Assembly (NCBI GenBank): GCA_947588355.1
Contig: CANPYI010000006.1
Location: forward strand, 1,910-65,909
From: an uncultured Clostridia bacterium
Lineage (GTDB): Bacteria; Bacillota; Clostridia; Christensenellales; UBA1242
Reading direction: 5' to 3'
DNA: 64,000 nucleotides
Below, in pieces: positions 2,350-32,370 of this stretch. Both the position numbers and the translations under genes were made by a program. The notes below the pieces were generated by a model. The model made no database searches. It saw only the letters and a list, made by a program, of their open reading frames with translations, and was not told the origin of the DNA. The stretch's first letter is position 1; the number at the start of each line of letters is the position of its first letter.

Positions 2350-2361
2350 AATTGCGTTTTC

Positions 2362-2390
2362 ATTTTAGCATAAATTTGAAATTATGAGAA
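2362..2390 (-). promoter_or_regulatory. candidate promoter of the ABC-2 operon (TTCTCA-N17-TAAAAT)
   Basis: On the minus strand the -10 TAAAAT is at 2367..2362 and a weak -35 TTCTCA at 2390..2385. The -10 ends only 12 nt before ATG 2349, and no Shine-Dalgarno lies between. Confidence 0.3.
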
Positions 2391-2489
2391 ATGATTTTAT
2401 TAAAAATCTTTGAAAAATAAACAAAATCGTTTTACTTTTTGTCCGAAATGGATTATTATATTTAATATAAGCGTATTTGGAGGCAAAAT

Positions 2490-2999: not shown

Positions 3000-3011
3000 G
3001 CAATTTAAAAT

Positions 3012-3036
3012 AAAAAGCCACAACAGGCTTTTTTAT
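3012..3036 (+). terminator. weak rho-independent terminator
   Basis: AAAGCC (3014-3019) / GGCTTT (3026-3031), 6-nt loop, then a T-run to 3034. Confidence 0.5.
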
Positions 3037-3063
3037 TTTTGATAAAAGTTTGAGGAGAAATTT

Positions 3064-3942: not shown

Positions 3943-3943
3943 G

Positions 3944-3972
3944 AAAAAACGTCAAAATTGACGCTTTTTTTA
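3944..3972. terminator. bidirectional hairpin between convergent genes
   Basis: Palindrome CGTCAAAATTGACG (3950-3963) flanked by an A-run and a T-run, between the hydrolase stop (3942) and the tmk stop (3970). Confidence 0.45.
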
Positions 3973-4605: not shown

Positions 4606-4622
4606 TTTCCACCTCCAATCCT

Positions 4623-4651
4623 ATTTTACTTAAAACACCAATTTAAGTCAA
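4623..4651 (-). promoter_or_regulatory. tmk promoter TTGACT-N17-TAAAAT
   Basis: On the minus strand the -35 TTGACT is at 4651..4646, followed by a 17-nt spacer and the -10 TAAAAT at 4628..4623. The SD begins 6 nt after the -10. Confidence 0.6.
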
Positions 4652-4652
4652 A

Positions 4653-4680
4653 TAAAAAAGAAAGAGGTTTTCTCTTTCTT
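4653..4680 (-). terminator. rho-independent terminator of the 9,209-aa gene
   Basis: Stem AGAAAGAG/CTCTTTCT (4659-4666 / 4672-4679), 5-nt loop, then a T-run on the minus strand (A-run 4654-4659 on plus). It starts 4 nt after the stop codon. Confidence 0.75.
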
Positions 4681-4683
4681 TTT

Positions 4684-7600
4684 TTATTGTTTGCTCATAT
4701 ACTTAATTTTTCTTTTTCTGTTTCTTCTGACCAAATAAATTGACAGCAAAATGACAAGTATAATCACAATCAAAATGATAAGAAGCCACAGCCACCACAA
4801 ATTGGTTTCGGTTCTTCTCCATATCGCATAAAGCACAAGTGTGCCATGGAAATCGATATTTATCACATCGCCATCAAAGAATGCAACGTCTCCGGTTGGC
4901 TCTGTTGCCCAACCAAGGAAAACGTGTCCTTTGTATGTGAATGGATTTGCTGGCAAAGTGCGTGCGTCACCATAGGTCACTGATGTAGAGATCACCTCGC
5001 CAAATCCGTTGTTTGGATTGAAGACAATTCTTCCTTCGCTTGGAATAGCAACCGCACGAAGTTGGAAAGTTTGAGCACGAGTTTGTATTTCCCTAAATCC
5101 AATCGGAGATGCGGTGTATTCTTGACGAACACCGTCTTGTTCCAAAATCCAACTTGACAACGCAAAGCCATCTTGCAAAACAACACTCAAACTTATCGTT
5201 TTGGTGTATTTTGCCTCATATGTCAAAACGCCCGGTTGTATGCTCAAAGCCCTTATGCCGTTGTTGTCAGGGTAGCCCTCAACGGTAACGCTTGTGATGC
5301 CTTCGCCATAAGTCACTGAAAATTTGATGTATTTCAATCGATATGCGATGTACACAACGGAACTGCCGTCACCCTTGATTTGTCTGTCACCGCTGATATT
5401 GTTCAATTCATATCCTTCGGTCAAATAAAGGTTGTTTCCAAGTGTAAATGAGTCAATTTCAAAGAATTTTTGTGCAAGTTGTTCGGTGTTGATTTGAGAT
5501 TCGGTCTGGCCAAAGAGTTCTCCAATGCCGACATCAATCACAGAAGATTGGTCTTCGTCTATCACTTCAACAAGGAATTGTACTGAATATTCTGCCGTGC
5601 CAAAATCTGTTGAAATGTAGATTATCATATCTTGCTCACTGTCCGACCTTAACTGAATGTAGTAAACAAGCGGATCTTCTTGGTCTTGAGTGGCATTTTG
5701 CAAATCAGCGCTCAGGTCAGTCTTCCAGCCTCTGAGAGTGTAGCCCGCTCGCATTCGCACAACAATCAAAACTGCAAGATCGTAGCGATAGTCACCTTCT
5801 CCAGAGATGTTTTCCACTTGATAACGATGTTCGTCAAGGACTTCAACGGACACGTTGATAATAATTCTTTCAAACATGATTCTGACTTCGGTACTTTCAT
5901 CGCCGTTTATTTGTGGGAATTTGGTGATATTGCCCGTGCTGTCCCAAACTTCGTAATTGGCATATTCGTAGCCTTTGTAGGTTTTTCCTTCGTAGAATGC
6001 TTGTATATCTTCCTTGGAAATAAATGTTGAAGTTGTGCCTTCCTTTTCAAGTTTTGATGCAGTGTCTTCTGCAAACTCACCTTTTGTTTCGGTCTCCAAG
6101 TAGAATGTCACAACATAACCCGTGTCGTTGTTGGCTGTAATTTTTGCCACAATCTCAGTGTCTTCTGTCAAAACGAATGCCAAAAGTGAAATCAATCTTT
6201 CCGTTATGGTGTACTTGTTTTCTTCAAGTTTCTGGCCGTCTTTTGAAAATTCGTTGAATGTGAAGCCTTGTTTGATGCTGAATGCCACACCTATTGTTTG
6301 ACCATATGCCACAGTCCAAACATTTGTGGATATTGGATTTGAAACTCTGCCCTGAACCAATGCAATAACAGAATTTTCTTCCAAGCCGTCAATATTTTGT
6401 GCAAAGTCAAACTTTAAGGTGAATTTTTTGAGTATTCTGTCAAAGTAAATTCTGACAACTGTCGTGCCGTTTCCGGCAATTCTGACAGGTTGTGCATTAT
6501 CGACAGAAGTTGAGGCAACACTAAAGCCCTCTTTTGGAGAAGTCAATTCGTCAAAGCCAAGCAACTCTCGTGTGATGACAGTTCCGGTTTTGCCCTTCTT
6601 TTCAACAATGCTGCTGCTTTCTTGCGGATGCTCATATCTAAGGTCGCCATCATACAAGAAGTAATCAACTCGTTGATAATAATAGTGCAAAGTGTAAACA
6701 ACTTCTTGGGCAACAGGCGTCACAACAACCGTAACTTCGCTTGCTGGCATTTTGAATGTCAAAGTAAAGTTCCTTGAGCCTCCAACACCCGGTTGTTCCG
6801 CTTTTGAAACAGTGAATTCTTCGTTTGTGAAAGTATGTTTGCTGTCTGTGATGGTGAAGTTTGCGTTTGTCAAATCCTCGTATCCAAGCAAAAGATTGAA
6901 ATTCAAAACGACCTGTTGTTCAAACATATAATTTCGGCCTTCGTCAAACTGTCCAAACACTTCTTCAAGTGGGGCGTCAATTTTCGGTTTGACACTCACC
7001 ATAAATTGACTACGTGTATAAAAGACCTCAACAACACTGGTCACATCACCAGAGATAATTCCTTCGCCGACCAAATAATTGAATACGGATAATCCGAAGC
7101 CATCAAGTGAAAGTTTTCCTGCTTCAACTTCACTGCTTATGGCAGCCAAAAGCATTTCTTCAGTTATGGTGTCACCGGTTGTGCCTTTTGCCTCAATCTC
7201 ATATGGGTCGTCGGTGTAGTCACGATTCAAGGTTTGCTTGTATACCATAATCTTGAACACAGTGTCGTCACATGGATCTGCAATTGCAATCAAATCAATA
7301 TTTTGAGTGATTTTTAACGTTTCGTCAGTTTTGTAAGACATCTCTCGTTGTGATTTAACTTCAAATCGTGCCGTGTCTTCCTTGAAGCCTGCCGATGCGG
7401 TGATCTTGAAGGTGACCGTGTCGCCATATTTGACAAGATAAACATCGTCAGATGCGCCAGGACGCGTCACAGCATATCCAGTGATATATGCCTCTCTTAC
7501 GGTTTCAATCTCATTCACCGTTCCACTGTTGAGTTTTGCCCTTTCAATAGTCACTGTGTAACTCAATCTTGAATAGTAAACTTTGATGGTTTGCGTTTTT

Positions 7601-22600: not shown

Positions 22601-25600
22601 GCAGATAATTTGCCAATTTCTTGCGCTGTGGAATCAACAGGAGAAATATTTTCCTTTCCAAGTCCTGCTTGCCACTTGTTTGCCGTCCAGCCAACTTTTG
22701 CAACAGATTGCACAGTGACTTTGCTTCCGTAGGTCACCAAAACTTTGCCGGTTTTGTCGTATTTGTTTCCGTCTTCGCCTTCAACACCGGTGCCAGAGAT
22801 GTTTATGTATTGTATCCCGTCGCCAATAGTGTAATTAAGTGTATATTTGTTTGCCGTCCAATGAGCATAAAGCGTAACTTCGCTTTTTGACCCTTGAACG
22901 CTTGGATCATATGTTGTGTCGATGTATTTCCAAACAATTTTATCGTCTTTTTTGTCAAGCCAAACAACTGTCTTTTCGCCAACACGTTCCGTAACAACAT
23001 TGTTTACTGCACTACCATCGGCTTCGAAAATTTTTAATCCGCCAGTTTGCTGCGTGTAAAATCCCTCAAAAGTGTAACCCGTTTTCCAAGCAACAACATC
23101 GCCTACTTCATCTGGTTTTGTTTGGTCAGGACTATATCCTTCCAAAGTGCCAATTTTTGCAAGTTCTTTGTCATATGTTGCGTGATGGCCAGTGTAACCG
23201 TGTCCGCCTTGGTCAAGGACAAATGTAAAGTCAATTTCTGTTTGGATTTCTGTCCATATTGCAGTGAGAGTGACATTGCCATAAGTTCCGCTTAGAACTT
23301 TTTCGGAAGGGTTTTTGTAAGTGTTGATTGTCCACATATCATTGTTGTCAGATTGTGTGATTTGCCATCTGAAGGTATAACCTTCCATAAACACTTCGTC
23401 ATATCCATACAACTCAAAATCTGAATTTGTGATTGTGTAACTTTGTGTGCTTGGTGTGTTTGGATTTTTCAGTGTGCCGCCATTAAACAGATAAATGATT
23501 GTGTAAGGCGTTGGAGTCCATTTTGCAAAAAGTTTGATGCCACTGGCAATTGACCAAACTCCGTTTTTTACATAATCTTGCTCACCTACTTTTGCATCCG
23601 ACACAAGTGTGCCGCCCGAAAGGATAAATTGTACACTGTCCGCGCCAACATTGGCAGCATTGTACCAACCGCCAAAGTCATAACCATTTCTGTTTGTCGG
23701 CAGAACTTTTTCAACAAGTCCACCCGCATGCTCTGCATCATAAAATTTGTTTGTGCCAAATTCAATCCAAACGGAAGACATGCTTTCGGCATTGTCGTAG
23801 TTGAGGTCAAGTTGCACCTCATATCTGTTTGCTTGCCATTTTGCATAAATTTCGGTGTTTTTTGTGGTGAAAGTCAGCACATCTGTGCTTGTCAAAAATT
23901 TGCCGTTTTCATCAACTATTTGCAATCCCCAATCTTCACTTGTTTTGCCGTCTTTTGAATAAAAGCCTTGGAAAGTATAGCCGGTTTTTGTCACTGTGCC
24001 CGCCAAATCAATTTTGCTTCCTGCAGCACCATTTGTGTTGGCATACCAACCTTCCTCATATCTGAGCCAAACACTTTCAACAGCGCCAGAGCCACCGTCA
24101 CTGTTTAAGGTGACAAGATATTCAGATGCTTTCCAGATTGCATAAAGCGTCAAGTGTTCTGCACGCGCCCACCTGCCGCCAACAATATAATTTTCGTGAT
24201 TTACAAGGTTTGCATCAACATCGATGATTTTGCCACTTTCAACCCCGCCATTTTCACCTTTTGTAACACTCCAACCGGCAAACTGATAGCCATCACGTGT
24301 TGGGTTTGTGATATCAAGGTCCTCGTTTGTGGAGTTGAATGTCACGCTGACAGATGTTGTGCCGGGATGAATTGATTCGCCGTCACCCGCATTTAAAGTC
24401 AGATTGAATGTGTTTTCTTTCCAACGTGCCGTCAAAGAAACATTTCCGGCATGTGTCCATTTGCCATCGGTTGTGTAATCATCAATATTCGAAGCCAAAA
24501 TGCCGTTTTCATCAATCAATTTCGTCTCAGGGTCAGTCAAGTACCAACCACAGAAGGTATATGCTTCCAACCTAGGGTCAGCCGAATACATGCCAAAAGC
24601 CTTAGCTTTCAAGTCTGTGATTTGCAAAGAATCTTTGTCATAATTGTACGGGAATCCACTGCCTGTGCGAGAAGAATAGAAGACAGATTCACCATATTTG
24701 ATATAAATCTTGCCACCGGTTATGTTTGAATCGTTGTACGAGCCCTCTGCAAATTTTTGGCTTGTCATGTCAAGATTTAAGGTCACTTCATATATATTTG
24801 CTTGCCATTGTGCAGCCAATGTCACACTTCCCCACATTCCTGAGAGGCTGAAGTTTTCTTGATAGTAAGGCAATTCTATATCTTTGTCCCATTGTCCAAC
24901 ACTTGCGACCGGCTTCCAGCCAACAAAACTGTAGCCATCTTTTGTTGCGCCCGGCAGCACGCTTGTGCTTGAAATGTCATAATCCAAATCCGGAATGGAA
25001 AGAGAGGTTTGTTCGTCGGTGTCAACGAATTTGATTGTGTAAGAAATATATTGCCAAACTGCGTAAAAAATTTGCGCTGGATAGGTGTCGTCTTCTGGTT
25101 GCGCTGTGGAAAGAAGTGACAAAAGTTTGTCTTTTGGTTTGACAAATTTGATTGCCGCAATTTCTTGCTCAGTTGCTTTTGCACTCAATATTTTTTGTGA
25201 ATCCAAGCACCAACCTAAAAATTTGTAGCCTTGTCCATCGATAGAAATTATTTTTGTATTGTCAGACCTGCCATCGTCATTGACGGCAGGAACATCGTAA
25301 GTTGCACCAAAGTCAATTTGTCTTGTGGCTATTGTAGGTGTTGTTGATATTGTCCAGCCTTCTTCTTCTACAGCACTTTCAAACTTGGCATCTGGCATGC
25401 CTGTGTTTATTTGAATAGTGTATGTGTTTGGTGTCCACTGAGCATAAAACGTCACATAAGTTTCGCTTTCTTGATATGCGTAAGTCCATTTTCCAGAGGT
25501 CAAGTAAACACTCACCGTCTCATTTTTCAAAGCACCACTTGAATAAGTGATTGCAGTGTACTGATCGCCCACTTTGACAGCCCAACCTTCAAAACTATGT

Positions 25601-28600
25601 CCAAGTCTTGAAGCAGTTGGATTGATTTGCGTATCTTCTGCGGCACTGTCATTTGAATACAGTTGATTGTTGTCAAATTGAACATATACATTTGCCGTGT
25701 TGTCATCTGTGTTTTTCGTTAATCCTTCAGAAAAACTGTCACCACCATTCAAGTCGAGATGGATTTCGTAAACTTTTGCCTTCCAAGCGGCATAAAGCAT
25801 AATTCCGTTGTTTTCGGAATAATCAACAGCACCGCCTGTCAAGCCATTTTGAGAAACCAACCAATCCACTGAAAGTTGTCCATTTCTGCCCACAATTGGC
25901 AGGTTTTCAAAAGTGTTCCAGCCCTCAAAAGTATATCCCTCACGAGATGCCAAAAGAGCAGAGATCAAATCTTGCTCATCTGCTGTGTAAGGGAAATCAT
26001 CTCCGCTGCGTTTTGCGTAAATTTCCTTTGTGCCATATTTGACATAGACAAACGCAGTGCCATCACTTTCAGGCACAATCTTTTCGCCGAAAGATGGATC
26101 TGTCGATCCGCTTCCTTTATTTAAATTTAATGCAACTTTGACAAGATTTGCTTCCCATTTTGCATAAATTGTGGTTGCTTGCAAAGTGAATGTGAATGCA
26201 TTTTCGGTGAATGTTCCGTCAGCATTTACAACTTGTGTGTCAAAATTTTCACCATCTTTTGTGAAATATCCCATAAATGAATATCCCACTTTTTGTGGCA
26301 ACTGAGCGGCGTTGAGTTTTGAAAGTTTGCTGTCTTCAACAACCGTATCTTCGCTTTCCGACACTCTGTAAAAACCTTTTGCATACAAAAGATACATGCT
26401 CGTCAAATCGCTTTCGTCAACCACAATGTCTTCCCCGGCATCAAGGTCGATTTTGAAAACTTTTGAATTCCATTTTGCGTAAATCTTAACGTTCACATCT
26501 TCGCCGACAAATTTGTCACCGACAAAATCTGCGGTTTCAAGTGTGAACAATGTTCCATTGTCAATTGGATTGCCAGAAAAATCTTCACGGCCATACCAAC
26601 CGCCAAAGTTGTAGCCATCATATGTCGGCTGAGGCATCTGTCCGTACGCTTGGCCGTATGTCAACTCTTTTGTTGCCTCCGTTCCTTCATCATTGACAGC
26701 CCAGCCATTTGCACTTTCTTCGTCCCATGTTCCGCCGTTAAGTTGTGCATGAACAGTGTAGGTATTTTCCGTCCATCTGGCATAGATTTTCACTTCGGCA
26801 TTGTCGTCAAAACTTGTAAACACAACATGGTCTTTGTCAAAAGGTGTGCCTATCTCAAGTTTTTCGCCTGTAAACTGTTTGTCTTTGTACCAACCCTCAA
26901 AAGTATAGCCGTTTTTGACCATACTTGCAGTTGGAAGTTCCTGATCCGAAAATGCGGTGGCATAAACTTTTGTTGTTCCTGCAACCTCAGTTCCGCCGTC
27001 GCTATCATAAGTCAAACGATAACTTTTTTCTTTCCATTTTACAAAAATCTTGACAACAGAACCGTCTTCAAAGTCCACAAATGTTGCCGTGCTATCCAAA
27101 AGAGTAAGTCCGTTTATCTTTTTGTCATAACTTTCATTGTTATACCAGCCCTCAACTGAATATCCATCTTTGTTTGCACCTGGCAAAGTTCCAAAACTGC
27201 TGTTGTAGGTGACTTCTTTTGTCACTGTGCCGTCAGCATTTTGAGTCCAGCCGTCTTCCTCCGACGGAACATATTCTCCGCCAAGAAATTCTGCCTGAAC
27301 TGTGTAAATGTTTGCTGTCCAGTGTGCATAGATTGTTGCCTCAGTAAAAGTGAAAGTCAAAACATCAATTTCGCCTGCAATGTTTTTACTGAAAGCAAAT
27401 TCATCATCAATAATCATCGTGCCGTCACCATCGGTTTCAGTAAAGAAACCGTGGAAAGTGAATCCGTTTGCAATAATCGAGTCAATTTTATCAATATAAC
27501 TGCTTTCGTCAACCGCCAAGCCCGTGTTGTCAAGTTGACTGTAGAAACCAACGCCATACAACAAATATATTGTTTTTGTTGTTTCCATGCCTGTCATTGG
27601 AGTGCTTTGCAAAGTTATGTTTAAAACTTTTGGCTTCCACCCTGCATAGATTGTTGCGCTTGAATTTTCATGGTCAACATCGGCATGGTCGGAATCAAAA
27701 GTGTCACCTTCTTTCAAAAGAGTTCCCGTGCCGTTGCCGTTTTCATTTTGCGAGTACCAACCAACAAAATCATAGCCATCGCGTGTGATTTTTGGAAGTT
27801 CCTGATCGGAAAATGGATCGCCATAATCTTTTGTTGCGTCAACAACAGTGTCTCCGCCATTGGATTCGTAATGCAACGTGTATGAAACTTGGTCAAATCT
27901 GGCATAAAGTGTCAGTCCTTCAGTGCCAACGACATAGTGCCAAACATTGTTTTGCGTGTAGCCATCTGCATTATCCGCATAAACGCCGTTTTCGTCGATA
28001 ACTTTCACTCCGCCGTTTGGCTCTGTCCAGAAACCGGTGACAACTGCACCCGATTTTTGTGCAGAAATAGACTTAACTTCCCCTCTCAATTTTTGTTGTT
28101 TGTCATATACATAGTATTTTGTAGTCGAGTCATACACAACAACAATTTCAACACTCTTGCTTTCAACAGTTTTTGTTGCGGTTCCTTCTGTGTAAGTCAG
28201 TGTCACCGTTCCATCACCGCCGTTGAGTGTGATGGTGTATTCGGCAGGAATCCAACTTGCGTAAAGTGTGGTTTCTTCCGAGAAAGTTATGTCAGTTTTG
28301 ATCCTTCCTTCTCTGTCAATCACTTGTTTTGAATTGTGTTCATCTGTATAGTATCCCGCAAATTCGTAGCCATCTTTTTTTGGAGTGATGATTTGATTTG
28401 TGCGAGAATCTTCCTGTGCATCTTGATTGGTGTACCAACCAGATGTCTCTTCATAGCGGACCCAAAGTTCTGTCGTACCCTTGTTTTGGTCTTCAACTCC
28501 TTCGCCGCTGTTCAAAGTGACTTTAAACACACCTGCGTTCCAAATTGCTTTCAAGGTGTATTCTTGTCCATTTTTTCCAATAAAAAGGTCGGCAATCTTT

Positions 28601-31600
28601 TGTTCTGTTTCGTCAACATTGGTCAAAATATTGCCTTTTGAATCGATCACAATCACATCTTTGCCGTCAACACTAAGGCTGTAGCCACCAAAACCATAGC
28701 CAGTGCGTTTTGGAATAGAAATCTCCTCAACACTGTTGGTCAAATCTCCATTGTCGCCTTTGTTTAAAAACCATTTGGCAATATCTGTGTCAGAATAATT
28801 GTCACCGTATTGCAAATAAAGCATATCAGGGCCGGCATCTAAATCTGCCAAAGAGTTGTCCAAATCGATTTCATACACATGAGGATTCCACTGTGCAACA
28901 ACTTTGTTTTCAGTGTCGCTGCTGCCAGCACCAAAAGTGTAAGAATATGTTTGATCTTCTGTCTCGGAAACGCTGCCCGGACCGATGACTAGCCAACTCA
29001 CAAAATCGTAGCCGGCACGTGTTGGAGTTTCAAGCGTAACAGATGTCCCAGTGTTTCCAGAAACAGGGGTTTGTCCAGAATATTCTCCGCCATTTGGCTC
29101 AACAATCAAAGTTTGAGGATTTGCCGTCCATTTTGCAAAAAGTGTTGTCGCAGTTTCTGTCACTTCCGTGCCAGCCGTGATTTCATCTCCCCGTCCATCT
29201 TGATCGGTGTTCCAGCCTTCAAAAGTGTAGCCCTCGCGATCTTGTGGTATTGGCAATCTGTTTGCAATAGGTTTTTCGTTGAATGAATAATATGTAAAGC
29301 CGTTTTCCTCAATAGTCTTTGTCATATCGCCAATAAACAGCGAAACAGAAAACGTCATTTGGCAAGTTTGCCCTTCATCTGTCGCGTACACAAAAACACT
29401 GATGTCGCTTGAAGGAGCGCCAGCGGAGGTTGTTACAAACCCCGTGTATGTGCCAGCACCGTTCACCATAATATTGCAATTTTGTTCATCACCGATATAA
29501 AATCCAAATCTCACGTCTGCACTGCTTTCAAAACTGTCAACGTCCAAAACAAAAGTGTATTTGGTGTTTGGACAGAAAAGCAAATTTGTGGAAATTTTTC
29601 CGGTTTCAAACGTGTTATATTCATCTACAGTGCCATTTAATGTAATCTTGTTTTCCTCTATGGTCACATTTTCGTGAGTTGAAACAAAATTTGCAACATC
29701 AAACAAGTTCTTTTTTCCATAAAAATCGCCGACAGTCACGGTGTCAACGCGCTTCAAAGTGCCGTCCTTAAATTGACCACCGTTGGCATCATATGTCACG
29801 TCAAACGGTGCCGCTATCCAATTTGCATGCAACTCGGTTGCTTGAGTTATGGCTGTTGGAGGGGCAACAATGGTGCCGGAAGCATTGACTATTATTCTGC
29901 CCGCGCCGTTTGGATCGGTGTAATATCCCGCAAAAATAAAGCCATCTTTGGAAGGGGTTGAAACCGCAGTGATAACTTCCTCTTCTGTGGCGGTTTCGGA
30001 AGAATAAAATCCCACACCGTACTTTTCGTAAAACTTTTCAGTTCCAAGGACTGTAGCGCCCTCGCCATTTAGGGTGATTTCATAAATTTCGGGTATCCAA
30101 TTGGCATAAATTGTCGCCGTTGACGAGCCTCCCGGAGTGCAAGTTGTCTCATCAAATATCATTCCCGGTGTCAGTTTTTGGGTCAAGCCCTTGTCCGCAT
30201 ACCAGCCTTCAAGTTTGTAATTGTCTTTTGAAAATCCGTCAGTGCTCAATTCCGGTTCGGTATATTTTGTTTCAAATTTTTTTGAAAACGTTCTGCCTTG
30301 CGGTGTGGCATCATCGCCAACTTCGTAGGTCACTGTTATTTCCACCGGCTGCCAAACAGCATAAATAGAGCCGTCTTGACTGATATTTATTGTTGGCGAG
30401 CCAATAGTGTCGTTGGCGTCTGAAGAAAAATTGTATGTATAACCGTATCTCGAAAACCACTCGCCTGAATTGGTCAGTCGGTGAGACGGCAAAATTTCAT
30501 TGTCATTCCAAACCAAAAGATAGGAATTTTCATGTTCGGATTTGCCCGGCACATGATAATACATTCGCAATTTGCCCGAAAATTTGTCAGTTTCGGACTG
30601 CAAAATAGGTGTCACTTGCAAACCGTCATTTTTCACTTCGCCGTTTTGACGCTCATTAAGGTCAAAGGCCCATGTGTCGGCAAAATCCCATTGCCCGCTG
30701 AAATATATCAGTTGTCCGTTGTCATCAACATATCTCAAATCACGGAAGCCGTCGTCCGAAAGCCAACTGTAAAATTCTGTGAAAAATCCCACATCGGACA
30801 TATAATCTGTCAATTTTTCAGTGGAAACATTGGCAACACGACCGTCATTTTCTTCAAAAGGTGTTGGATCTGCAGTGATATAACTTTCGACATTAGGCCC
30901 ATAAACATATCTGCCTTGAAAGGAATTTTTTGGTGTTTTGTCAGAAATGCCTTTCAAAAACAAGCAATTTTCAAAGTAAACATGTTGCAGCAGATTTGTC
31001 AAGTCAATTTCACTTTCAAAGATGCAGTTTTCAAAAGTCACTTCATTAGGTCCACGCAAACCAATAGAAAAAGATACTCCTTCAGTGAATCTGCAATCTG
31101 AAAAGTAATAATAATCCGAGTCCTTGAAAAAGTAGTTTGTGTTTATCACCTTTGCATGTTCTTCATGATTGCCCAAAGCACTTGCAGCCGCCAAGTCCAA
31201 ATTGAGGTGAAGTGCAGGACGTGTGTAGGCAACAATATCAACAGCAAGTTCCACGGCCCCGGGATCTAATGATGCACCATTAAGAGAAGACCTCGTGTAA
31301 AAAGTTTCATAACTGCTTTGCTTTGTTGATTTTTTTCCTATTTTTTGTGTTGGAGTGGCACGCCTGATGAGTATGTCCGAATTGTCACACTGCCACATGC
31401 CCTCTGAATCACTATATCCCAATTCTGCAAACGAAGGAATCCAAAGATAGTCATCTTTCCAGGCGTCATATCCAGTGTTGGATGAAAAACCATCTTCATC
31501 TGAAACACTAGTCTCCCAATTGTCATTTGAAAGATATAAACCCTCAATCGTTTCCCCGTTTTGTTGCCACTGCATATTCAATGGCTTTTCAAGGAAGTCG

Positions 31601-32313
31601 GTTATGTCGTTGTCTGATCCACTTTCCGAAACTGTGAATGGTGCAAACACACTTTCACTGCTTTTATCTGTCTGTGCAAGGTTTGTTCCGTCAGTTGTGT
31701 ACTCACCGCCGTTGTTGAGTGTGACAACACGCATATAGGAAGTGCCATACATGGACCCTGGATAGTCGTCTTCCCAGTAATATCCATCTTGTTCAAAAGC
31801 GGCAAAAGAACTGAAAAGATATCCATCAGCAAAGCCATAATAATCGCCCTCGTCTGCTTGTCTTTCCAAAAAAGGCTCTTGCGCGTCTGCCGAAAGCCAA
31901 AGTGTGAGGATTCTGTCCCCATTTTTGTTTTCGGAAAGATATGTTGGCACCCATTTAAGTCCGCCAAAAGTTACGGTGTGGATATTCTGCGACAACTCTT
32001 TTGATGTGCGCACCGTTCTGTCTTGCATGAAAAGAGTTGTTGGATCAACGCCAGGATTGTCATACAACCCATGCAAAAGATCGCAGAAATTGATCCATTC
32101 AAATGCTTTTTTTTGATCGTCCCATATATCGTAAATATCTTTTGCCTCTGTGGCAGATGTTTGCTTGTCGGAATCATCTTCAACATATTCTGCCGAAGTC
32201 AAAATGCTCGGCAAAAAACTCAGGCCCATGCCAAAAGTAGCCATAAACACGCACAAAACTGACAACAACGAAAACGCCAACTTTTTTTTGAATTTGTTCA
32301 CATTCTCCTCCAA
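4684..32313 (-). CDS. giant (9,209 aa) secreted, C-terminally membrane-anchored repeat adhesin-like protein with Listeria-Bacteroides / InlB B-repeats
   Basis: One uninterrupted ORF in the supplied track. It has an N-terminal basic plus hydrophobic signal segment (KFKKKLAFSLLSVLCVFMATFGMGLSFLPSILTSA/EY). By my count there are about 50 copies of the repeat ending ...GY.F.GW...(L/I)YA.W. It ends in a C-terminal TM helix with a basic tail and has its own promoter and terminator. The true start is probably GTG 32301 (GGAGG 5 nt upstream) rather than TTG 32313. Confidence 0.9.
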   Translation of the reverse strand: MEENVNKFKKKLAFSLLSVLCVFMATFGMGLSFLPSILTSAEYVEDDSDKQTSATEAKDIYDIWDDQKKAFEWINFCDLLHGLYDNPGVDPTTLFMQDRTVRTSKELSQNIHTVTFGGLKWVPTYLSENKNGDRILTLWLSADAQEPFLERQADEGDYYGFADGYLFSSFAAFEQDGYYWEDDYPGSMYGTSYMRVVTLNNGGEYTTDGTNLAQTDKSSESVFAPFTVSESGSDNDITDFLEKPLNMQWQQNGETIEGLYLSNDNWETSVSDEDGFSSNTGYDAWKDDYLWIPSFAELGYSDSEGMWQCDNSDILIRRATPTQKIGKKSTKQSSYETFYTRSSLNGASLDPGAVELAVDIVAYTRPALHLNLDLAAASALGNHEEHAKVINTNYFFKDSDYYYFSDCRFTEGVSFSIGLRGPNEVTFENCIFESEIDLTNLLQHVYFENCLFLKGISDKTPKNSFQGRYVYGPNVESYITADPTPFEENDGRVANVSTEKLTDYMSDVGFFTEFYSWLSDDGFRDLRYVDDNGQLIYFSGQWDFADTWAFDLNERQNGEVKNDGLQVTPILQSETDKFSGKLRMYYHVPGKSEHENSYLLVWNDNEILPSHRLTNSGEWFSRYGYTYNFSSDANDTIGSPTINISQDGSIYAVWQPVEITVTYEVGDDATPQGRTFSKKFETKYTEPELSTDGFSKDNYKLEGWYADKGLTQKLTPGMIFDETTCTPGGSSTATIYANWIPEIYEITLNGEGATVLGTEKFYEKYGVGFYSSETATEEEVITAVSTPSKDGFIFAGYYTDPNGAGRIIVNASGTIVAPPTAITQATELHANWIAAPFDVTYDANGGQFKDGTLKRVDTVTVGDFYGKKNLFDVANFVSTHENVTIEENKITLNGTVDEYNTFETGKISTNLLFCPNTKYTFVLDVDSFESSADVRFGFYIGDEQNCNIMVNGAGTYTGFVTTSAGAPSSDISVFVYATDEGQTCQMTFSVSLFIGDMTKTIEENGFTYYSFNEKPIANRLPIPQDREGYTFEGWNTDQDGRGDEITAGTEVTETATTLFAKWTANPQTLIVEPNGGEYSGQTPVSGNTGTSVTLETPTRAGYDFVSWLVIGPGSVSETEDQTYSYTFGAGSSDTENKVVAQWNPHVYEIDLDNSLADLDAGPDMLYLQYGDNYSDTDIAKWFLNKGDNGDLTNSVEEISIPKRTGYGFGGYSLSVDGKDVIVIDSKGNILTNVDETEQKIADLFIGKNGQEYTLKAIWNAGVFKVTLNSGEGVEDQNKGTTELWVRYEETSGWYTNQDAQEDSRTNQIITPKKDGYEFAGYYTDEHNSKQVIDREGRIKTDITFSEETTLYASWIPAEYTITLNGGDGTVTLTYTEGTATKTVESKSVEIVVVYDSTTKYYVYDKQQKLRGEVKSISAQKSGAVVTGFWTEPNGGVKVIDENGVYADNADGYTQNNVWHYVVGTEGLTLYARFDQVSYTLHYESNGGDTVVDATKDYGDPFSDQELPKITRDGYDFVGWYSQNENGNGTGTLLKEGDTFDSDHADVDHENSSATIYAGWKPKVLNITLQSTPMTGMETTKTIYLLYGVGFYSQLDNTGLAVDESSYIDKIDSIIANGFTFHGFFTETDGDGTMIIDDEFAFSKNIAGEIDVLTFTFTEATIYAHWTANIYTVQAEFLGGEYVPSEEDGWTQNADGTVTKEVTYNSSFGTLPGANKDGYSVEGWYNNESYDKKINGLTLLDSTATFVDFEDGSVVKIFVKWKEKSYRLTYDSDGGTEVAGTTKVYATAFSDQELPTASMVKNGYTFEGWYKDKQFTGEKLEIGTPFDKDHVVFTSFDDNAEVKIYARWTENTYTVHAQLNGGTWDEESANGWAVNDEGTEATKELTYGQAYGQMPQPTYDGYNFGGWYGREDFSGNPIDNGTLFTLETADFVGDKFVGEDVNVKIYAKWNSKVFKIDLDAGEDIVVDESDLTSMYLLYAKGFYRVSESEDTVVEDSKLSKLNAAQLPQKVGYSFMGYFTKDGENFDTQVVNADGTFTENAFTFTLQATTIYAKWEANLVKVALNLNKGSGSTDPSFGEKIVPESDGTAFVYVKYGTKEIYAKRSGDDFPYTADEQDLISALLASREGYTFEGWNTFENLPIVGRNGQLSVDWLVSQNGLTGGAVDYSENNGIMLYAAWKAKVYEIHLDLNGGDSFSEGLTKNTDDNTANVYVQFDNNQLYSNDSAAEDTQINPTASRLGHSFEGWAVKVGDQYTAITYSSGALKNETVSVYLTSGKWTYAYQESETYVTFYAQWTPNTYTIQINTGMPDAKFESAVEEEGWTISTTPTIATRQIDFGATYDVPAVNDDGRSDNTKIISIDGQGYKFLGWCLDSQKILSAKATEQEIAAIKFVKPKDKLLSLLSTAQPEDDTYPAQIFYAVWQYISYTIKFVDTDEQTSLSIPDLDYDISSTSVLPGATKDGYSFVGWKPVASVGQWDKDIELPYYQENFSLSGMWGSVTLAAQWQANIYEVTLNLDMTSQKFAEGSYNDSNITGGKIYIKYGESVFYSSRTGSGFPYNYDKDSLQITDLKAKAFGMYSADPRLEAYTFCGWYLTDPETKLIDENGILASNIDDYTTDGKWTHAGNVSLTARWKENTFNLTLNAGDGESIHPGTTSVSVTFNSTNEDLDITNPTRDGYQFAGWSVTKGENGGVESGKIIDVDANLVNHENYIVGGRWARAEHLTLYAIWKASEYLVTLNSDGGSGAVESVWLRYEEGWYANTNGAAGSKIDLAGTVTKTGYTFQGFYSKDGKTSEDWGLQIVDENGKFLTSTDVLTFTTKNTEIYAKWQANRYEVQLDLNYDNAESMSSVWIEFGTNKFYDAEHAGGLVEKVLPTNRNGYDFGGWYNAANVGADSVQFILSGGTLVSDAKVGEQDYVKNGVWSIASGIKLFAKWTPTPYTIIYLFNGGTLKNPNTPSTQSYTITNSDFELYGYDEVFMEGYTFRWQITQSDNNDMWTINTYKNPSEKVLSGTYGNVTLTAIWTEIQTEIDFTFVLDQGGHGYTGHHATYDKELAKIGTLEGYSPDQTKPDEVGDVVAWKTGYTFEGFYTQQTGGLKIFEADGSAVNNVVTERVGEKTVVWLDKKDDKIVWKYIDTTYDPSVQGSKSEVTLYAHWTANKYTLNYTIGDGIQYINISGTGVEGEDGNKYDKTGKVLVTYGSKVTVQSVAKVGWTANKWQAGLGKENISPVDSTAQEIGKLSAELYQFTFDNKLFGEVEVMSQSNEYYVFADATPQPQAYQIRFRLQNSESKFGVNAYGDAIVLHDDPEDKKYVGLADSKLELSTLQEFVSQYVSTQEGLSLDGYEYHALRYSKTGREMPDGFDDEAELTIAGDGSLVVELFYSYVTYTLEYKFVENEEGAWVNGVKDTQDYTIGTVIYFRTNEDVRRAGYVLVGWKPNFSGLIGNWLDNKEFVLSEEPHVTGKYGEKDNNVTLVAMWQEDTFELTYTVNQGQWQEDTPAPRSYTYGQSVNLDNKTDYVIERTGYDFVGWTEEITFDMWYNGKIAQDGSFVVDENNKSIYTQAFTLRGGVNYSVNATDWKIYVEGNLEKKWFTATDTLKIDGEGVFVAYLIFENGITERDNIKITADMHISELPANSIGNRNFVANWSPKKIQVKLNLNDSEKGNGSTKAKLEPSDLSFDSEGNYLVYIQFDSKDMFTKQDGTQKLSTLKASRNGYVFDGWFDSLNNRLTDDNGQLNGVWNDINITEMVAHWIANTYTITLNGAGGNFVASDEGVYVTEDGNGNNFTIKGLVLTATFDKEGAFSTSLTRPGFILTGWTLEEDSSLEDQKLDGWTTTRQEGAIWNISGTKVKNLAYSGNVNLYAEWSSDYVEITLSTQVIGSSEVQYGNGVEVIYVRTGATFSTAVSNVDAQDDSKGIIGLLKPFKEGYSFEGWYLRDNSNQQTHSDQESQKIEGTTELLESYLKDAPINAQGRAQITLCVHWQVDSFKVVYHIGYNGSTKTYTDPIEVEYDGQYAILTEQAIFDANAKNSAIGWSKDDVLGFEFKGWHTQDGTEYKESYKINSYTEAKDLHLYATREEHTYTVRYDPDDDNYQGTAKKLNGNQVEDGTNIVIKQYKYTDIVDIDAKHKRDGYVFDHWVTLDGKTLVSKDATADQILNTKLVTEKDGTITLKAVWTAVKVNFEIHHMGQTIQAALEERTEFDPDSMSNFALLSMETRTDFTDKKLTEILGENLTDAYQEKTGFTKLKFVTNKGDDLTQLVVQADGSLKIYLLYTRNYRDIKVTLEKGVASVSATAKDTTQNSDRTLTPSIEGQITTFKKVFFEEEVTITATLKTGYENAIFKNGDNVVSMPITVTGEKEPLNLTVSATAGKIAYSVKVYLMKPDGQYDSGDANNDTILLLAENLKKEKLEATVDEPLEIIPSEIFERLGFEYDAGKSENKVSVDQLVPDTVFEIYFKRVASTLTIVVGEGGEYGSEKVVEGKYTYTEKVLYGFEVPLETATKDGYTFVKWTLTQGTGTISQDNKTFTMGEQDATLTAQWIEKVYKIQLEVEDGETITDNLTAVYVKYADNTLYKNYEDTSGNGTAYTLSDEVVPTATKYGYDFGGWYYSDKQLIDENGLVEYENVFKDNKWIYTASDSITVKAKFTAKSITVTFDKNIDTKYPKDDVKDMPDPASITVTFGETYGTNTEEVDAWTTSPKRSGYTFAGWFTDKNPQDDAQAITGQSTVDIESAHTLYAKWNKKDAYDIEYDLNNGYETKPIQVDNDPRQVEAHPENDVTINFSIKEETNFFMPASLNVSIILDKEFENAEVTLVSGKGFTYNITGDGTSATLVIEKEYINGKIKIKAEPTPGENRIITVLNHLTYYGPDNILSGTDFEGTLVPEVGYELPPKITILINGEESENYQYDSTSGEITIESQYVTNNITIIADGVAKKVKVTFHANGGTLSETDGGGETKTFEKVEFATAIEGFPQDPTKEGYNFAGWWLVENPPSVDAQLEATRFYADTTLQGGECAKDFTLYALWQSRNATVVLQNNSLQDYEGEITATLETEEQSFTTNVLKTGAKILITVTPRSDKFALLKVVKTTNKEGDSTEVELSKEGEKYVYTVLPSDTNFENAIIYITAIYQVTGTMHVYTDTGTVNSESNNGGTAKFVDAQETETTYTFTYTGDEQTVGVQATEKPGYRFAGWYDSADFDNQIGSTNSFDFPVGTNGNFDVYAKFEAIEYTITYKPNEGQFDQSLSSGLIDGNYVQRYKVSDESIEILSDKLTKRGYTLTGYKLSFAEEEAQNWTEQFEDNIVDIKAEVKSGKYGNIVLEANWQADKHTVKLDENTNGGTGDVTIGGGLTQITVTFDLTFGLATADGVENAWETIQKTERTGYHFLGWALTKDATKEQLLDAQSKVDIVDNDSSIYAIWEALTTTKYKVEYWLETLDSTEDARKFALDNEFNVPDEITEIHTSDKMEGTTDETATIQEFAYYGFEQFEIEEKVGEYLPTAKSGNIDANGTLVLRLYYIRKTYTIQVSTPELGVNSVTIGEEKFECDSETHSWTFKYFENLTLDVGLRDNYSLASIYDVSQDDNWSEWKDGGTSVEFVLKQDLNLQIRVDAQPVKYTVEFKYQAIAESQDDYQPNLEEAPSVTNQEGKADSVVTYAMLENLILKNQLDGFEYDGNFTSYTLDAEKEQHIITINYNRKKYTLTLDKNNNAQVQKLTASANYSWLISEKSEESTGTTWVYEVVYGATVTVVAEIENGYDLKEFVARPPVKFSDVENNTKAKTFEWNVADDLTIYATTKALPSEFVVEYYVEKLGATDITKFDDQNYESAVDRALVNGGVVENTTATGPTGDSPVLPSTLKLDIKGFTYSTEIASGNIVWTNKDDPESLKNRTVLKVYYIRKSATINISMTEGIETVSVQITGDEGSEIGSENFASSKGNSASFELKYEAKAEFSYTLTKLEEEDVYEFTGWRVGQSTQMEYSFTANSFNEDNLLVGLSITATAQGKQFNVIFHSTNDGGEGDQTDSQTVRYNVQTSLKDNSFTKDGYEFKGWSAVAGKSDITYQNGALYTHKVATNVNLYAIWGAYSYKVIYDYNNATLKGEVEDAPKDLTAKVPFDVDYDTPHELVNGGDYLYLAGYHFDGWDVVIGGITIKTLAASEPSFINLTKERGQLVTLKAKWTENTYTIYYNSNYNYQGVEEADPVPEEFSYTQTVKIKTATDVGFKMTGYHFIGWGVKDAEGKVGEPIYLSTQENLSGLAGKDKNNDRIDLWAVWTANKYTITYDPNDEQYVGDAEGQMSTQEVYYDEEGTILSKCGFTLTGYTFAGWTTVEGGKTADYTPLEDGTFDPQDKLNLAGKEKDNDTLTLYAVWTANKYTITFKAQGGKFDDSLKGSKESGKYIDDNGDYVVTYTIEDSEKVTIPDGKLLTRTGYTLAHYIFSAKDGNWSEEYTAETLALDTKIQQYMYGNVVLEAHWTAITITLTITYVMSDTHSELAPIAFSTGVVFDGTFSRQSPEVAGYTPDKATVTVTMSLGEGEGFLTAEEIESKSKSITVTYSPNRYKITLDLNDTTGSSKAELTLNKVLYTSEKEIVIYIDYNTDFASAYLGTEEETVFTKGETVGLVDPTRTGYGFVGWFISGNDDKEIEESTVFDNKTFNISSNITLVAHWNAIDSKFNVKITFENLLGTEFEEDLTLAKQGTGKTDTKVTWDMIYKALESGSALPEFDGFVAPDSFETDNGGNIVANVDKAITTVTLKYTRAYISLVLSKDAADEDISFAADSAEVDSTHDKTFYVRTAKDGGTGVYLVRFGAHVTVTAQSSNAGYVINEFGVDKELKEWSTSTVQDGVTRTATFVMEKQAEESADLGSTVKITISKQAHAYKIIYHAGFGEKEQTREQTTHEKRELNKEELIRYRETVNLLDGTIFTRTGYTFAGWTLKENPNGVISNDGNSYTFVLNTYAKEIDIYATWEAIGYTINLSASDGIDTSKVKITVYDSEGSQIDTPAFASSITVHHDDKLTISVENAIKGGYDFVGFVVGEETHENNTYEVPAVSGPMSIRLTAKPRSDTKFTVEYHIQSLLDEDKYNIVQDLTQVIEGTTDRLITLEYLRQLEEASLQLAEEKHLDIIKQIKGFSQIGLEDNTKRVLYGQDENGNAIPVTTVVIRYNRLQFELDLDDSDPGVQEFLAESKESSREISSAGGHYSVWFETEFTLKLSINAGGYDYEDFGFTITLIEPDTSATSRRVELKDVDRQKIDGGYEFTLNGLKLFEITLDSKDESGNYTYTFKTMPAYGVIITPTTSPKTFDVTYHLNSGMAEQTYLDPTKATYNAPYTILTLSEISDKSGQAWSKPGYEFDGWAISAEKAAAREIDFLPEQKTIDKYLYTSDLELFAVWEAKDAKYRVEYYFENAEGTEDDDNFTKDAKLTVEYDSKVDQQILEKDFVHASVEGFEFDTNNKNNKLSGKVLDNVKDDDGNITPDSILVLKAYYKRVSHTLTVTYDVGINKVQVVESYGVKEITENQDLRTVTATVKYGVKVTIYWSDEDIVKGYENPVITGAKLLEDNRSFTMSNEDMHVYVETSLSTYKITYKPGENKLGVKASGENFEQQVVYTKTVQLMSKPDTFLLAGYHFTGWILKEEGSVEEGKFYKVDGDWTFTLDVPNNFEATAQWEADTDTRYYADFYLSTIDGGYIGGVEKPTGTVVLTGTTDTEILSSEVEAAFVRLNFADLETDSAGYKFSKVTDVDGTELSDQNKVTIKGEGTTRVKVYYVLEMFDISFTWTGYAENETGIESVTVSYQVSGAEENRTNTYRDDSSTLQNVEYTSTITISMTFKTGYRFRKVVVTGTDLYQELTSATNLPSGAYQVTYTMPAKNINIQIVSYPDQYDIIYHRNLNEDDKETTKQTVLKGQPYILEGSFSVVGYKFLGWSENEKPQDGERLYQIGDAPEDFYSKSDDWELWGRWEANIYYYTYSANGASLVVGKEAPRGDSVRYDEGFELINWSEFYVWTGHVFLGWSTDGQQVNIAGQCDSLEDLKGKPGGIYQKAGEENTYFAINLATGESGDTSVILYAMWREITYTVTICSNNVQDENYKEQKIRNEDGTFNFKYNDIVKLPAFNTLEGWIAPEEYLRFYGWTYTDDEKQRQYLLCAEDATPELSRLTENDNTEVRLYVYWSDGKETVLVHIMKETFITGEYLETSDNYEEFSIRYEIGQTLTSEIVYNNFIVGKKYDGKTYDNIEGFTYNAAKQESIDIVVGKTQTIKVYYSRLSYTVTIERAKLNSGTVNEIETVREAYITGYAVTRPGASDDVYLVKYGDTVTFKITASAGFKEDTARFEVKSQREMSYKTDETLKITQNIDLIAIADPCDDTVFKIMVYKQTLNRDYTDDPYEIEAKGTTGDTITEEMLLAAISSEVEAGKLSLDGFGLSVFNYLVGEGIISGDVTSVVEVFYTRSQFMVSVKPKIDAPLEEVFGQFDEGRNYMFEQQVVLNFNLLLGYEDLTNANFTITDSKHTFTNEEFTVSKAEQPGVGGSRNFTLTFKMPASEVTVVVTPVAQEVVYTLHYYYQRVDYFLYDGDLRYEHPQESSSIVEKKGKTGTVITRELLGFDELTSPKEGFSVASTSVDNAQPVRIAGNGTTVVRIYFDRILKKFTLKFDFAQNIDGLEENSVIALVQGRVSNPISTNVWTVAYGQTIGVAFSIKQGFTFNEFSKDGQKLEENKYTITERLISLLAFVLTEDTEIVAKITANNDTGYVVTFYLETETKGEFAEDTASKLEKEGTTSTFISKEDIQAFYEGKTYKGYEYANYEVWDSTGNITKFPQINGDESTEVRIMFERIIINVSVEVLDEHRYQVENISGEGDYRYDLAVLIVVRMRAGYTLRGWKTDLSADLQNATQDQEDPLVYYIQLRSDSEQDMIIYISTDFGTAEYSVQFLVEVIDEDQSSVIDVGIGELFGQTESQINTEQLAQKFFEIDSFTLGNNLYLTEGYELNNISGDRQIKGDGSSVVYIAYRLKYIKFSVTYGEGITSVTVEGYPDNNGIRALSIQPGVLTYEAKYTKTISLSVVLQDGFALSSWILEQDGVRQEYTASPIGFREIQTRAQTFQLRAVAIPSEGRIVFNPNNGFGEVISTSVTYGDARTLPANPFTYKGHVFLGWATEPTGDVAFFDGDVINIDFHGTLVLYAIWRRTETNLWWLWLLIILIVIILVILLSIYLVRRNRKRKIKYMSKQ
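4729..4803 (-). other. C-terminal transmembrane anchor of the giant protein, followed by basic tail RRNRKRKIKYMSKQ (4687..4728)
   Basis: Translation NLWWLWLLIILIVIILVILLSIYLV, checked against the DNA at 4741-4803. No LPXTG-like motif precedes it. Confidence 0.85.
4830..19800 (-). repeat. protein-level module array, C-terminal half of the giant protein: ~100-aa 'KYxVxYY...GF...LxVYYxR' (MucBP-like) modules alternating with Ig-like/divergent B-repeat modules and interspersed canonical B-repeats
   Basis: The first such module (VNFEIHHMGQ...) maps to about 19770-19797. Module starts recur, for example TKYKVEYWLE, VKYTVEFKYQ, FVVEYYVEKL, KFTVEYHIQS, AKYRVEYYFE and VVYTLHYYYQ, each ending in ...YY/YF.R..Y. 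Confidence 0.6.
19800..30516 (-). repeat. protein-level array of Listeria-Bacteroides (Flg_new / InlB B-type) repeats, N-terminal half of the giant protein
   Basis: Runs from about aa 600 to 4170. At least two subtypes of 70-110 aa occur. One is the ...Y(D/E)xNGG...LPxPxRxGYxFxGW...LYAxW type. The other is a longer ...(L/V)Y(V/L)xYGxGFY...GYxFxGY(Y/F)T...(I/V)ID..G... type. Units are separated by the (I/V)Y(E/T)(I/V) linker. Confidence 0.7.
29323..29712 (-). other. ~130-aa beta-sandwich-like (possible carbohydrate-binding-module-like) insertion nested inside one B-repeat
   Basis: aa ~868-997 (KNLFDVANFV...TKYTFVLDVDSFESSADVRFGFYIGDEQ...GTYTGFVTT...VFVYATDEGQTCQMTFSVSLFIGDM) interrupts a repeat. 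That repeat starts FDVTYDANGGQF and resumes ...LPIPQDREGYTFEGW...LFAKW. Coordinates were verified for N869 at 29707-29709. Confidence 0.4.
31190..32016 (-). other. N-terminal non-repeat head domain of the giant protein (DUF6273-like by pattern)
   Basis: aa ~100-375: HTVTFGGLKWVPTYLSENKNGDRILTLWLS ... YLWIPSFAELG ... FYTRSS. This resembles the 'W.vL...d...LlL ... lWlpS..E ... RS' pattern of that family. Assigned from memory only. Confidence 0.35.
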
Positions 32314-32341: not shown

Positions 32342-32370
32342 ATTTTAATATATTAAACAAAAAAAGTCAA
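32342..32370 (-). promoter_or_regulatory. promoter of the giant gene, TTGACT-N17-TAAAAT
   Basis: On the minus strand the -35 TTGACT is at 32370..32365, followed by an exact 17-nt spacer and the -10 TAAAAT at 32347..32342. It lies about 40 nt upstream of GTG 32301. Confidence 0.6.

Follow-up and report, generated by a model that had tools for sequence, protein, structure and literature searches.

A 64,000-nucleotide (nt) stretch of DNA from an uncultured Clostridia bacterium (GenBank assembly GCA_947588355.1, contig CANPYI010000006.1, positions 1,910 to 65,909; hereafter the window, to which all coordinates refer) carries on its reverse strand a gene for a protein of 9,205 amino acids (aa). 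This giant protein is probably a membrane-anchored fibrillar adhesin-like protein of ~1.03 MDa, which would hold an N-terminal head domain hundreds of nanometres from the cell. It begins with a signal peptide, continues through the head into a stalk made mostly of B-repeats of the type found in internalin B (InlB), and ends in a transmembrane (TM) helix followed by a basic tail. A first-pass annotation, made by a model from the sequence alone, had proposed a very long membrane-tethered fibre or adhesin reaching hundreds of nanometres, and the combination of signal, repeat stalk and C-terminal TM anchor fits that proposal. Its core reading stands, while its account of the parts missed the head (aa ~100–370), a second stalk domain, here called X1 (~15 copies), and 13 repeats of the Flg_new_2 type.

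The open reading frame (ORF) occupies positions 4684..32313 (−) and runs for 9,209 codons from the first possible start, a TTG, to a single, terminal stop; the window contains no ambiguous bases (N). At the base composition of the gene, a stop is expected in 6.5% of codons, and 9,209 open codons would arise by chance with a probability of ~1e-271. The remaining five frames over the same DNA contain 171–689 stops. A GTG at 32301 is the likelier start, because it lies 5 nt 3′ of a GGAGG core (32311-32307) and because the gene call on an independent ENA contig, L086, begins at the equivalent position. The start context reads GGAGGAG-AAT-GTG (32299..32311, −), with a Shine–Dalgarno sequence at 32311-32305 and the GTG at 32301-32299. 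Translation from this GTG yields a protein of 9,205 aa beginning MNKFKKK, with a mass of 1,030 kDa and an isoelectric point (pI) of 4.45.

The DNA of the gene is poor in repeats, despite the repetitive nature of its product. No tandem repeats were found in it with TRF, no direct repeat exceeds 74 nt (81% identity), and the repeat units of the protein are 20–32% identical by self-BLAST and 17–35% identical in the unit alignment. An assembler therefore has nothing to collapse, and mis-assembly through repeat collapse was rejected as unlikely. The divergence of the repeats also means that such a giant gene can be assembled reliably from short reads. Independent metagenome contigs (ENA/Logan) match both ends of the gene: three contigs (L001–L003) correspond to window positions 1280-6556 at 99.98–100% and include the last 623 codons, while L086 corresponds to 33925-31637 at 99.96% and includes the first ~220 codons. 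The neighbours beside the giant gene are identical in these independent contigs. As these fragments from other samples cover the ends only, what they say about variation in repeat number is limited. A genuine single gene is well supported, and the earlier claim of an uninterrupted 9,209-codon ORF representing a true gene is borne out by the chance expectation, the repeat-poor DNA and the matching ends in independent contigs.

A related metagenome-assembled genome (MAG) supplies an orthologue. In a word-indexed protein database, aa 8054–9089 have a single detectable homologue, P0056, a protein of 1,662 aa with 30% identity, encoded on contig CAYOOB010000002.1 of GCA_964405555.1. A 6,082-aa gene lies 25 nt upstream of it in a different frame, and the short gap between the two ORFs contains a run of 10 N (9957-9966 of the fetched locus, L004). 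The division into two separate genes is most likely an artefact, and the related MAG most likely carries one orthologue of ~7,750 codons, which would fall ~1,450 aa short of the giant. Of the 6,082-aa gene, the 3,324 aa that are visible run collinear with aa 3837–7392 of the giant, as does the whole of P0056 with aa 7454–9205, at 30–32% identity. Judging from the annotated lengths, most of the shortfall would fall in the unseen N-terminal part. Synteny is also retained, with tmk and a Hydrolase_4 gene within a few genes downstream of P0056, as in the window. The persistence of more than 7,700 open codons in each of two lineages whose proteins are ~30% identical is strong evidence of a functional gene.

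Identity to the orthologue is much higher over the last ~80 residues than elsewhere: the motif GDVAFFDGD.I.IDF..TLVLYAIW, NLWWLW and the terminal KYMSKQ are nearly the same in both proteins. Such strong conservation suggests that the last B-repeat, the helix and the tail are under a constraint tied to anchoring, export or passage through the wall. Neither a single-sequence scan of GTDB representative genomes nor two JGI metagenome scans turned up further orthologues. The word-indexed search returned no protein longer than ~2,100 aa, even with a 1,200-aa query from the annotated 6,082-aa protein, so that the absence of the giant from its results is uninformative on rarity. The orthologue split by 10 N is also an example of how giant genes come to be under-counted in MAG annotation.

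The topology signals lie at the two extremes of the protein, which has only two hydrophobic segments, aa 7–35 and aa 9168–9191. The first belongs to a putative Sec-type signal peptide (aa 1–37; 32191..32301, −) comprising the n-region KFKKK, a hydrophobic core and a cleavage site, TSA|EY, judged by eye; a Sec-type signal segment had been recognised here in the first-pass annotation. The second is a predicted C-terminal TM helix, LWWLWLLIILIVIILVILLSIYLV (4729..4800, −), followed by a poly-basic tail, RRNRKRKIKYMSKQ (4687..4728, −), which is presumed cytoplasmic and whose final KYMSKQ is identical in the orthologue. No LPXTG-type motif (LP.TG, [SN]P.TG or LP.[AG]G) occurs anywhere in the protein, and sortase anchoring is accordingly not supported. 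The same TM-plus-poly-basic ending is found in several large proteins that share the head domain and in a 1,698-aa neighbour in the window. The idea that KYMSKQ is a general sorting signal was rejected, since other family members share the TM-plus-poly-basic pattern only.

Between these signals, most of the chain is stalk (aa 654–9163; 4813..30342, −), which comprises ~63 B-repeat-type units (50 canonical, 13 divergent), ~15 copies of X1 and ~7 unassigned segments of 70–190 aa. Across the giant protein, Pfam detects Flg_new (PF09479) in both halves, with E-values of 1.7e-85 and 1.5e-61 and scores of 281.5 and 204.8 bits (curated cut-off 27), and 18 stretches pass individually; Flg_new_2 matches weakly, and nothing else does. 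The NCBIfam model TIGR02543 scores 159 and 101 bits (cut-off 20.95; E = 2e-47). These scans, far above curated cut-offs, substantiate the identification of InlB/Listeria-Bacteroides B-repeats. Among the other families that the first-pass annotation had put forward for a Pfam check, MucBP gave no match and DUF6273 none directly.

A profile iterated on the giant protein itself recovers 50 canonical B-repeat units of ~95 aa each, with the consensus TYTVTLNLNGG...TGYTFEGWYT...VTLYAKWTA. This count agrees with the ~50 repeat termini of the (L/I)YA.W type originally reported, while the literal [LI]YA.W motif occurs 21 times. Where canonical units are detected they abut, with 0–3 residues between them, and the densest run of such units (aa 978–3150; 22852..29370, −) contains 22. 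When a 40-unit profile was compared with the PDB, the top six matches were all Internalin B, the best being its B-repeat (2Y5P, 9QR4; E = 6e-6 to 1e-5). Profile positions 2–98 align with residues 5–72 of 2Y5P, that is, with the whole domain (E = 1e-5), and the units are ~95 aa long instead of ~70 aa because of two insertions relative to the InlB B-repeat. The InlB B-repeat fold is beta-grasp-like (PMC8900821), and given this end-to-end alignment the earlier description of the modules as Ig-like is not supported. The last, membrane-proximal B-repeat (aa 9090–9163; 4813..5034, −) carries the GDVAFFDGD.I.IDF..TLVLYAIW motif that is so unusually conserved with the orthologue. Near its start, the B-repeat array is broken by a 147-aa insert (aa 831–977; 29371-29811, −; …NTKYTFVLDVDSFESSADVRFGFYIG…) that matches nothing in Pfam; it could be a small accessory domain, possibly one with a binding role.

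The ~3,600 aa outside the canonical units are mostly recurring pairs of two further sequences, X1 and X2, and not linkers. X1 spans ~100 aa, with the signature Y.V.YY.E...G.T...GF.Y...I.GDG.TVV..YY.R..T.T., and X2 spans ~85 aa, with the signature G..SV...Y...V...GY.F. The 13 divergent Flg_new_2-type repeats and X1 are concentrated in the C-terminal half, and five consecutive X1-X2 di-domain units of ~185 aa each occupy aa 8160–9086 (5044..7824, −). X2 is best classed, from its sequence, as a divergent B-repeat; its status as a new domain was rejected because 6 of its 15 units match Flg_new_2 and because iteration draws its profile into the B-repeat family. X1 has no match to a Pfam family. Its reading as a divergent B-repeat is not supported (hhalign probability 0.2%), nor is its reading as MucBP (no Pfam MucBP match at E ≤ 1 in 15 units). 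Together, the 50 canonical and 13 divergent B-repeats and the ~15 X1 domains cover 7,410 of the 9,205 residues. The seven unassigned stalk segments of 70–190 aa have sub-threshold Pfam matches only.

An AlphaFold2 (AF2) model of one X1-X2 unit, based on an alignment of 15 paralogous and orthologous copies, has a pLDDT of 79 and a pTM of 0.75, with the X2 part above pLDDT 90. In this model, X1 shows the order beta-beta-alpha-beta...beta. Against the PDB, the model matches only stalk modules of Gram-positive surface fibres, namely the Spy0128 and PitA pilins, YwfG, SraP, SHIRT and InlB. The probabilities are 0.9–0.99 with TM-scores of just 0.25–0.38, which fixes the class of module and not the family. 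InlB appears among these fold matches (E = 0.03), the modelled B-repeat being of the divergent X2 type.

The length of the stalk can be estimated by analogy. In YwfG, residues 28–511 span 180 Å, and the column of one Mbp domain and four Mub repeats has been estimated at 600–650 Å (PMC9815576). At a few nanometres per domain, calibrated on YwfG, an extended stalk of ~85 domains would reach ~200–600 nm. Inter-domain misfolding is usually avoided through low identity between adjacent domains (PMC8201768).

Ahead of the stalk lies the head domain (aa ~100–370; 31192..32004, −), followed by a post-head region with F.NC.F motifs (aa 371–653; 30343..31191, −) that has no Pfam or PHROGs match above threshold. 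The word-indexed database contains 55 homologues of the head, at most 43% identical and all uncharacterised proteins of uncultured Clostridia MAGs, and their alignment has 21 invariant residues. One homologue (P0001) carries the head domain twice in tandem. Twenty of 41 head-family members match DUF6273 (PF19789; best E = 1.3e-11), while the window head itself matches no family. The matches of these relatives fall inside the segment aligned to head aa ~265–370, and the head accordingly appears, through such intermediates, to be a distant, enlarged relative of DUF6273. The AF2 model of the head (pTM 0.79) has a confident core, with 143 residues at pLDDT ≥ 90. DUF6273 has been described as a C-type-lectin-like domain of phage receptor-binding proteins that is targeted by diversity-generating retroelements (DGRs; PMC10743442), and as an N-terminal domain beside the catalytic M64 domain in the T. 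ramosa immunoglobulin A (IgA) protease (PMC12402451). A DGR targeting the head was rejected for this window: no template-like repeat of the head DNA was found, only chance matches of 14–18 nt, and no reverse-transcriptase domain was found among the window ORFs of at least 150 aa that were scanned.

The head is a conserved portable module. When its alignment was compared with GTDB genomes, at least 418 loci were found, all in gut-derived MAGs labelled Clostridia, Christensenella, Catabacter or Eubacteriales, which come from rabbit, deer, mouse and Hadza human samples. A single rabbit-gut MAG (CANQOO01, Lapin-032__bin69) has at least 10 of them. The head-bearing ORFs are mostly small: 47 are complete, with a median of 840 aa and a maximum of 3,549 aa. 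Many copies are short proteins of 450–650 aa that end right after the head (…VRPALHLNLTEVAKSLKK). Three other head-bearing ORFs run off the fetched DNA at no fewer than 4,741, 4,314 and 3,734 aa (L028, L039 and L051, respectively), so further giants with this head probably exist in Christensenella-like MAGs. The 21 invariant residues and the reuse of the module on hundreds of proteins argue that the head has a specific activity and is not filler.

These components suggest how the giant protein would work. Its N-terminal signal peptide would direct it to the Sec pathway for export, and its one C-terminal helix, acting as a stop-transfer segment with the poly-basic tail on the cytoplasmic side, would keep it in the cytoplasmic membrane, with no involvement of sortase. 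The extracellular chain of ~8,500 residues would then consist of ~80–90 small, mutually divergent beta-domains, mostly InlB-type B-repeats with ~15 X1 domains among them. Such a chain, if rod-like and extended, would cross the wall and carry the head hundreds of nanometres outward. With an N-terminal signal, a C-terminal TM helix and a basic tail in the cytoplasm, the head should be the part farthest from the membrane, which makes it the obvious candidate for a functional tip. Its presumed role is to bind a ligand, for example a protein or glycan carried by host mucus, by food particles or by other cells.

Not every result favours an adhesin with a ligand-binding head. No recognised adhesive domain was found in the protein with Pfam; the window head has no DUF6273 (PF19789) match in a Pfam scan at a maximum E of 10, in which HMMER filters drop most matches above E ~0.1; the PHROGs scan of the head returned no match; neither the PDB nor BFVD yielded a Foldseek match to the head model at E ≤ 0.001, C-type-lectin folds included; and the middle 25 kb of the gene is backed by one assembly only. 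Each of these counts to some degree against the favoured reading. The last of them, together with a source that is apparently a metagenome-derived contig of 66.4 kb and independent contigs that confirm only the two ends, is what could be said for an assembly artefact or a decaying pseudogene, in which a chimeric or collapsed repeat assembly happened to stay open by chance. This is very improbable: the open frame has the minute chance expectation given above while the other frames are littered with stops, the DNA has no repeat of a length that could mislead an assembler, and the orthologue is collinear and open over ~7,750 codons at ~30% identity. The lack of a recognised adhesive domain would also suit a passive coat or spacer, in which the protein forms an acidic brush with neighbouring repeat proteins that serves for spacing, for shielding against phage, antibodies or proteases, or for non-specific aggregation, with a head that has no specific ligand. 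The very low pI of 4.45 and the presence of three more large repeat-rich surface proteins within 26 kb (2,575, 1,698 and 2,050 aa) are in keeping with such a brush, and long surface proteins are reported to block binding by others through spatial competition (PMC8201768). We nevertheless consider a passive role unlikely, as the head is a well-conserved folded module with its 21 invariant residues on hundreds of proteins.

The head might instead be an enzyme, such as a hydrolase acting on host or dietary polymers, and the giant a tethered exo-enzyme. Invariant polar residues include S290, E293, H365 and R337 (protein numbering), no counterpart of the head fold is known, other proteins join B-repeats to peptidase and kinase domains, and DUF6273 adjoins the catalytic M64 in the T. 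ramosa IgA protease (PMC12402451). However, the catalytic domain of that protease is M64 and not DUF6273, and the head matches no catalytic family in Pfam or NCBIfam, which makes this alternative distinctly improbable. In agreement with the first-pass annotation, no enzymatic or toxin domain was detected in the giant protein with Pfam and NCBIfam. A bolder proposal starts from the absence of a structural counterpart in the PDB or BFVD: the head could be a new ligand-binding or catalytic fold that gut Christensenellales-like Clostridia have expanded into a large multi-copy repertoire, with X1 as a new stalk domain family and the giant as the longest ‘reach’ variant of a variable tip-adhesin system. 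We hold this combined proposal only tentatively and regard it as doubtful. If it were true, these bacteria would display a repertoire of tip adhesins directed at other microbes, IgA or host glycans, with stalks whose length ranges from a few hundred residues to over 9,000. The reading preferred here is a membrane-anchored fibrillar adhesin-like protein with a distal head.

In size, the giant is very large, yet not among the largest bacterial ORFs, as had been claimed at first. Predicted bacterial proteins reach 85,804 aa, with examples of more than 30,000 aa in Firmicutes (bioRxiv 10.1101/2023.11.21.568195), and UniProtKB holds more than 41,000 proteins of over 5,000 aa across the tree of life, mostly eukaryotic (PMC11573180). 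An exhaustive HMMER search with a 1,192-aa tile of the stalk matched 16,901 representative proteins at E ≤ 1e-3, of which 1,123 reach E ≤ 1e-30. The best 150 of these relatives have a median length of 2,542 aa; 28 are at least 4,000 aa long, 14 are at least 5,000 aa, which again shows the original claim to be overstated, and the longest has 7,626 aa. B-repeat proteins of 4,000–7,600 aa are common, and the giant, at 9,205 aa, is longer than any of the best 150. Five relatives that were examined closely are at the level of paralogues: they are 22–28% identical to the giant and not collinear with it, and have differing N- and C-termini (P0092, for instance, has LPKTG).

The flanks of the gene contain candidate transcription signals. 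A sigma-70-like promoter candidate, TTGACT-N17-TAAAAT (32342..32370, −), matches at 10 of 12 positions. This site had been presented in the first-pass annotation as the gene's own promoter; it is present at 32370→32342, but ~1.4 equally good matches are expected by chance in that AT-rich stretch, so that it is weak evidence. At the other end, a terminator-like hairpin followed by a T-run (4654..4684, −) has 13 bp and a folding energy of −15.6 kcal/mol (z = −5.9 relative to shuffled sequences). A hairpin and T-run are therefore present as described, while ‘strong’ was a generous term for a stem with just 3 G-C pairs. A terminator-like site was looked for between the upstream ZIP gene and the promoter candidate of the giant gene, and none was found. 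Monocistronic transcription of the giant gene is plausible. The gene directly downstream, tmk, has a promoter-like site of its own (4623-4651, −) with hexamers and spacing identical to those of the giant gene (TTGACT-N17-TAAAAT), which starts 3 nt past the terminator hairpin.

Other genes in the window also encode surface proteins. A 2,575-aa ORF (37231-44958, −) has an N-terminal hydrophobic anchor and one Flg_new match, ends in the B-repeat motif LYAIWGK and is mostly unannotated; an upstream 367-aa ORF (44955-46058, −), without a Pfam match, overlaps it by 4 nt. The 1,698-aa surface protein (47326-52422, −) contains 11 MBG_2 and 3 YDG stretches and Flg_new_2, and its end (…IIFRKKNARKIKF) is a TM-plus-poly-basic anchor of the same kind as that of the giant. 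The interval 52441-61011 (−) encodes a 2,050-aa protein with five Big_2 domains and a hyaluronate-lyase N-terminal beta domain, then a 534-aa membrane protein and an ABC ATPase, and these genes may form a surface-protein and transporter operon. At the window edge, a DUF5722-family protein (62441-63928, −; E = 6e-86) adjoins a probable lipoprotein (61162-62415) with the signal …LAAC.

The giant gene is thus a well-supported case of a 1-MDa surface protein encoded at full length by an uncultured, Christensenella/Catabacter-like member of the gut Clostridia. The attachment of poorly known, host-associated Christensenellales-like bacteria to mucus, particles or partner cells is probably shaped by such proteins. 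Its DUF6273-related head and its X1 stalk domain are both uncharacterised and could be worth studying for structure and binding. No general concept is changed by these findings, as giant repeat adhesins and Flg_new stalks were already known.

The giant resembles DUF6273 proteins in the placement of its head, since these domains also stand at the N-terminus of modular surface proteins (PMC10743442, PMC12402451). Its head differs in that it falls below the Pfam threshold and has no C-type-lectin-like Foldseek match, and the window contains no DGR template. The Mub/YwfG mucus-binding proteins of lactic acid bacteria (PMC9815576) share its overall plan, in which a column of repeats, each made of two subdomains and ~180–190 aa long, bears a tip domain. 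The model of the X1-X2 unit (~185 aa) aligns with YwfG over ~195 columns with a probability of 0.98–0.99, at a TM-score of only 0.32–0.35. YwfG, however, is an LPXTG-type protein of ~1,000 aa with a legume-lectin tip, whereas the giant has no Pfam MucBP or Mub match.

Periscope Proteins (SasG, Rib and Sgo_0707; PMC8201768) have the same working principle, a stalk of tandem domains that projects an N-terminal head, and the B-repeat itself has been called a periscope-type spacer (bioRxiv 10.1101/2024.12.31.630911). In Periscope Proteins, repeats that are 82–100% identical, as those of SHIRT are, drive rapid changes in length, whereas those of the giant are 17–35% identical and its DNA contains no tandem repeats. 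Rapid length switching is therefore not expected, and the giant works like a periscope while lying outside the Periscope Protein class. The B-repeat of InlB from Listeria monocytogenes (2Y5P; PF09479) belongs to the same sequence family as the units of the giant, with which it shares the motifs GY.F.GW and LYA.W. InlB has one B-repeat of ~70 aa beside a leucine-rich repeat domain, while in the giant ~63 repeats of ~95 aa, enlarged by two insertions, make up the bulk of the protein.

The closest parallel is with the fibrillar adhesin-like proteins of Firmicutes whose stalks consist of Flg_new (Monzon et al., PMC9210967). In this class Flg_new is well established as a stalk module, and in many members the N-terminal part, far from the anchor, lacks annotation. 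The giant follows the same plan: a signal at the N-terminus, then a part without annotation at the end away from the anchor, a long tandem array of Flg_new domains and a C-terminal anchor. It differs in being much longer (~80–90 domains, 9,205 aa), in being anchored by a TM helix instead of LPXTG, and in having as its head a distant DUF6273 relative without a recognised adhesive domain. The giant is best read as an extreme-length member of the known Flg_new-stalk fibrillar adhesin-like class.

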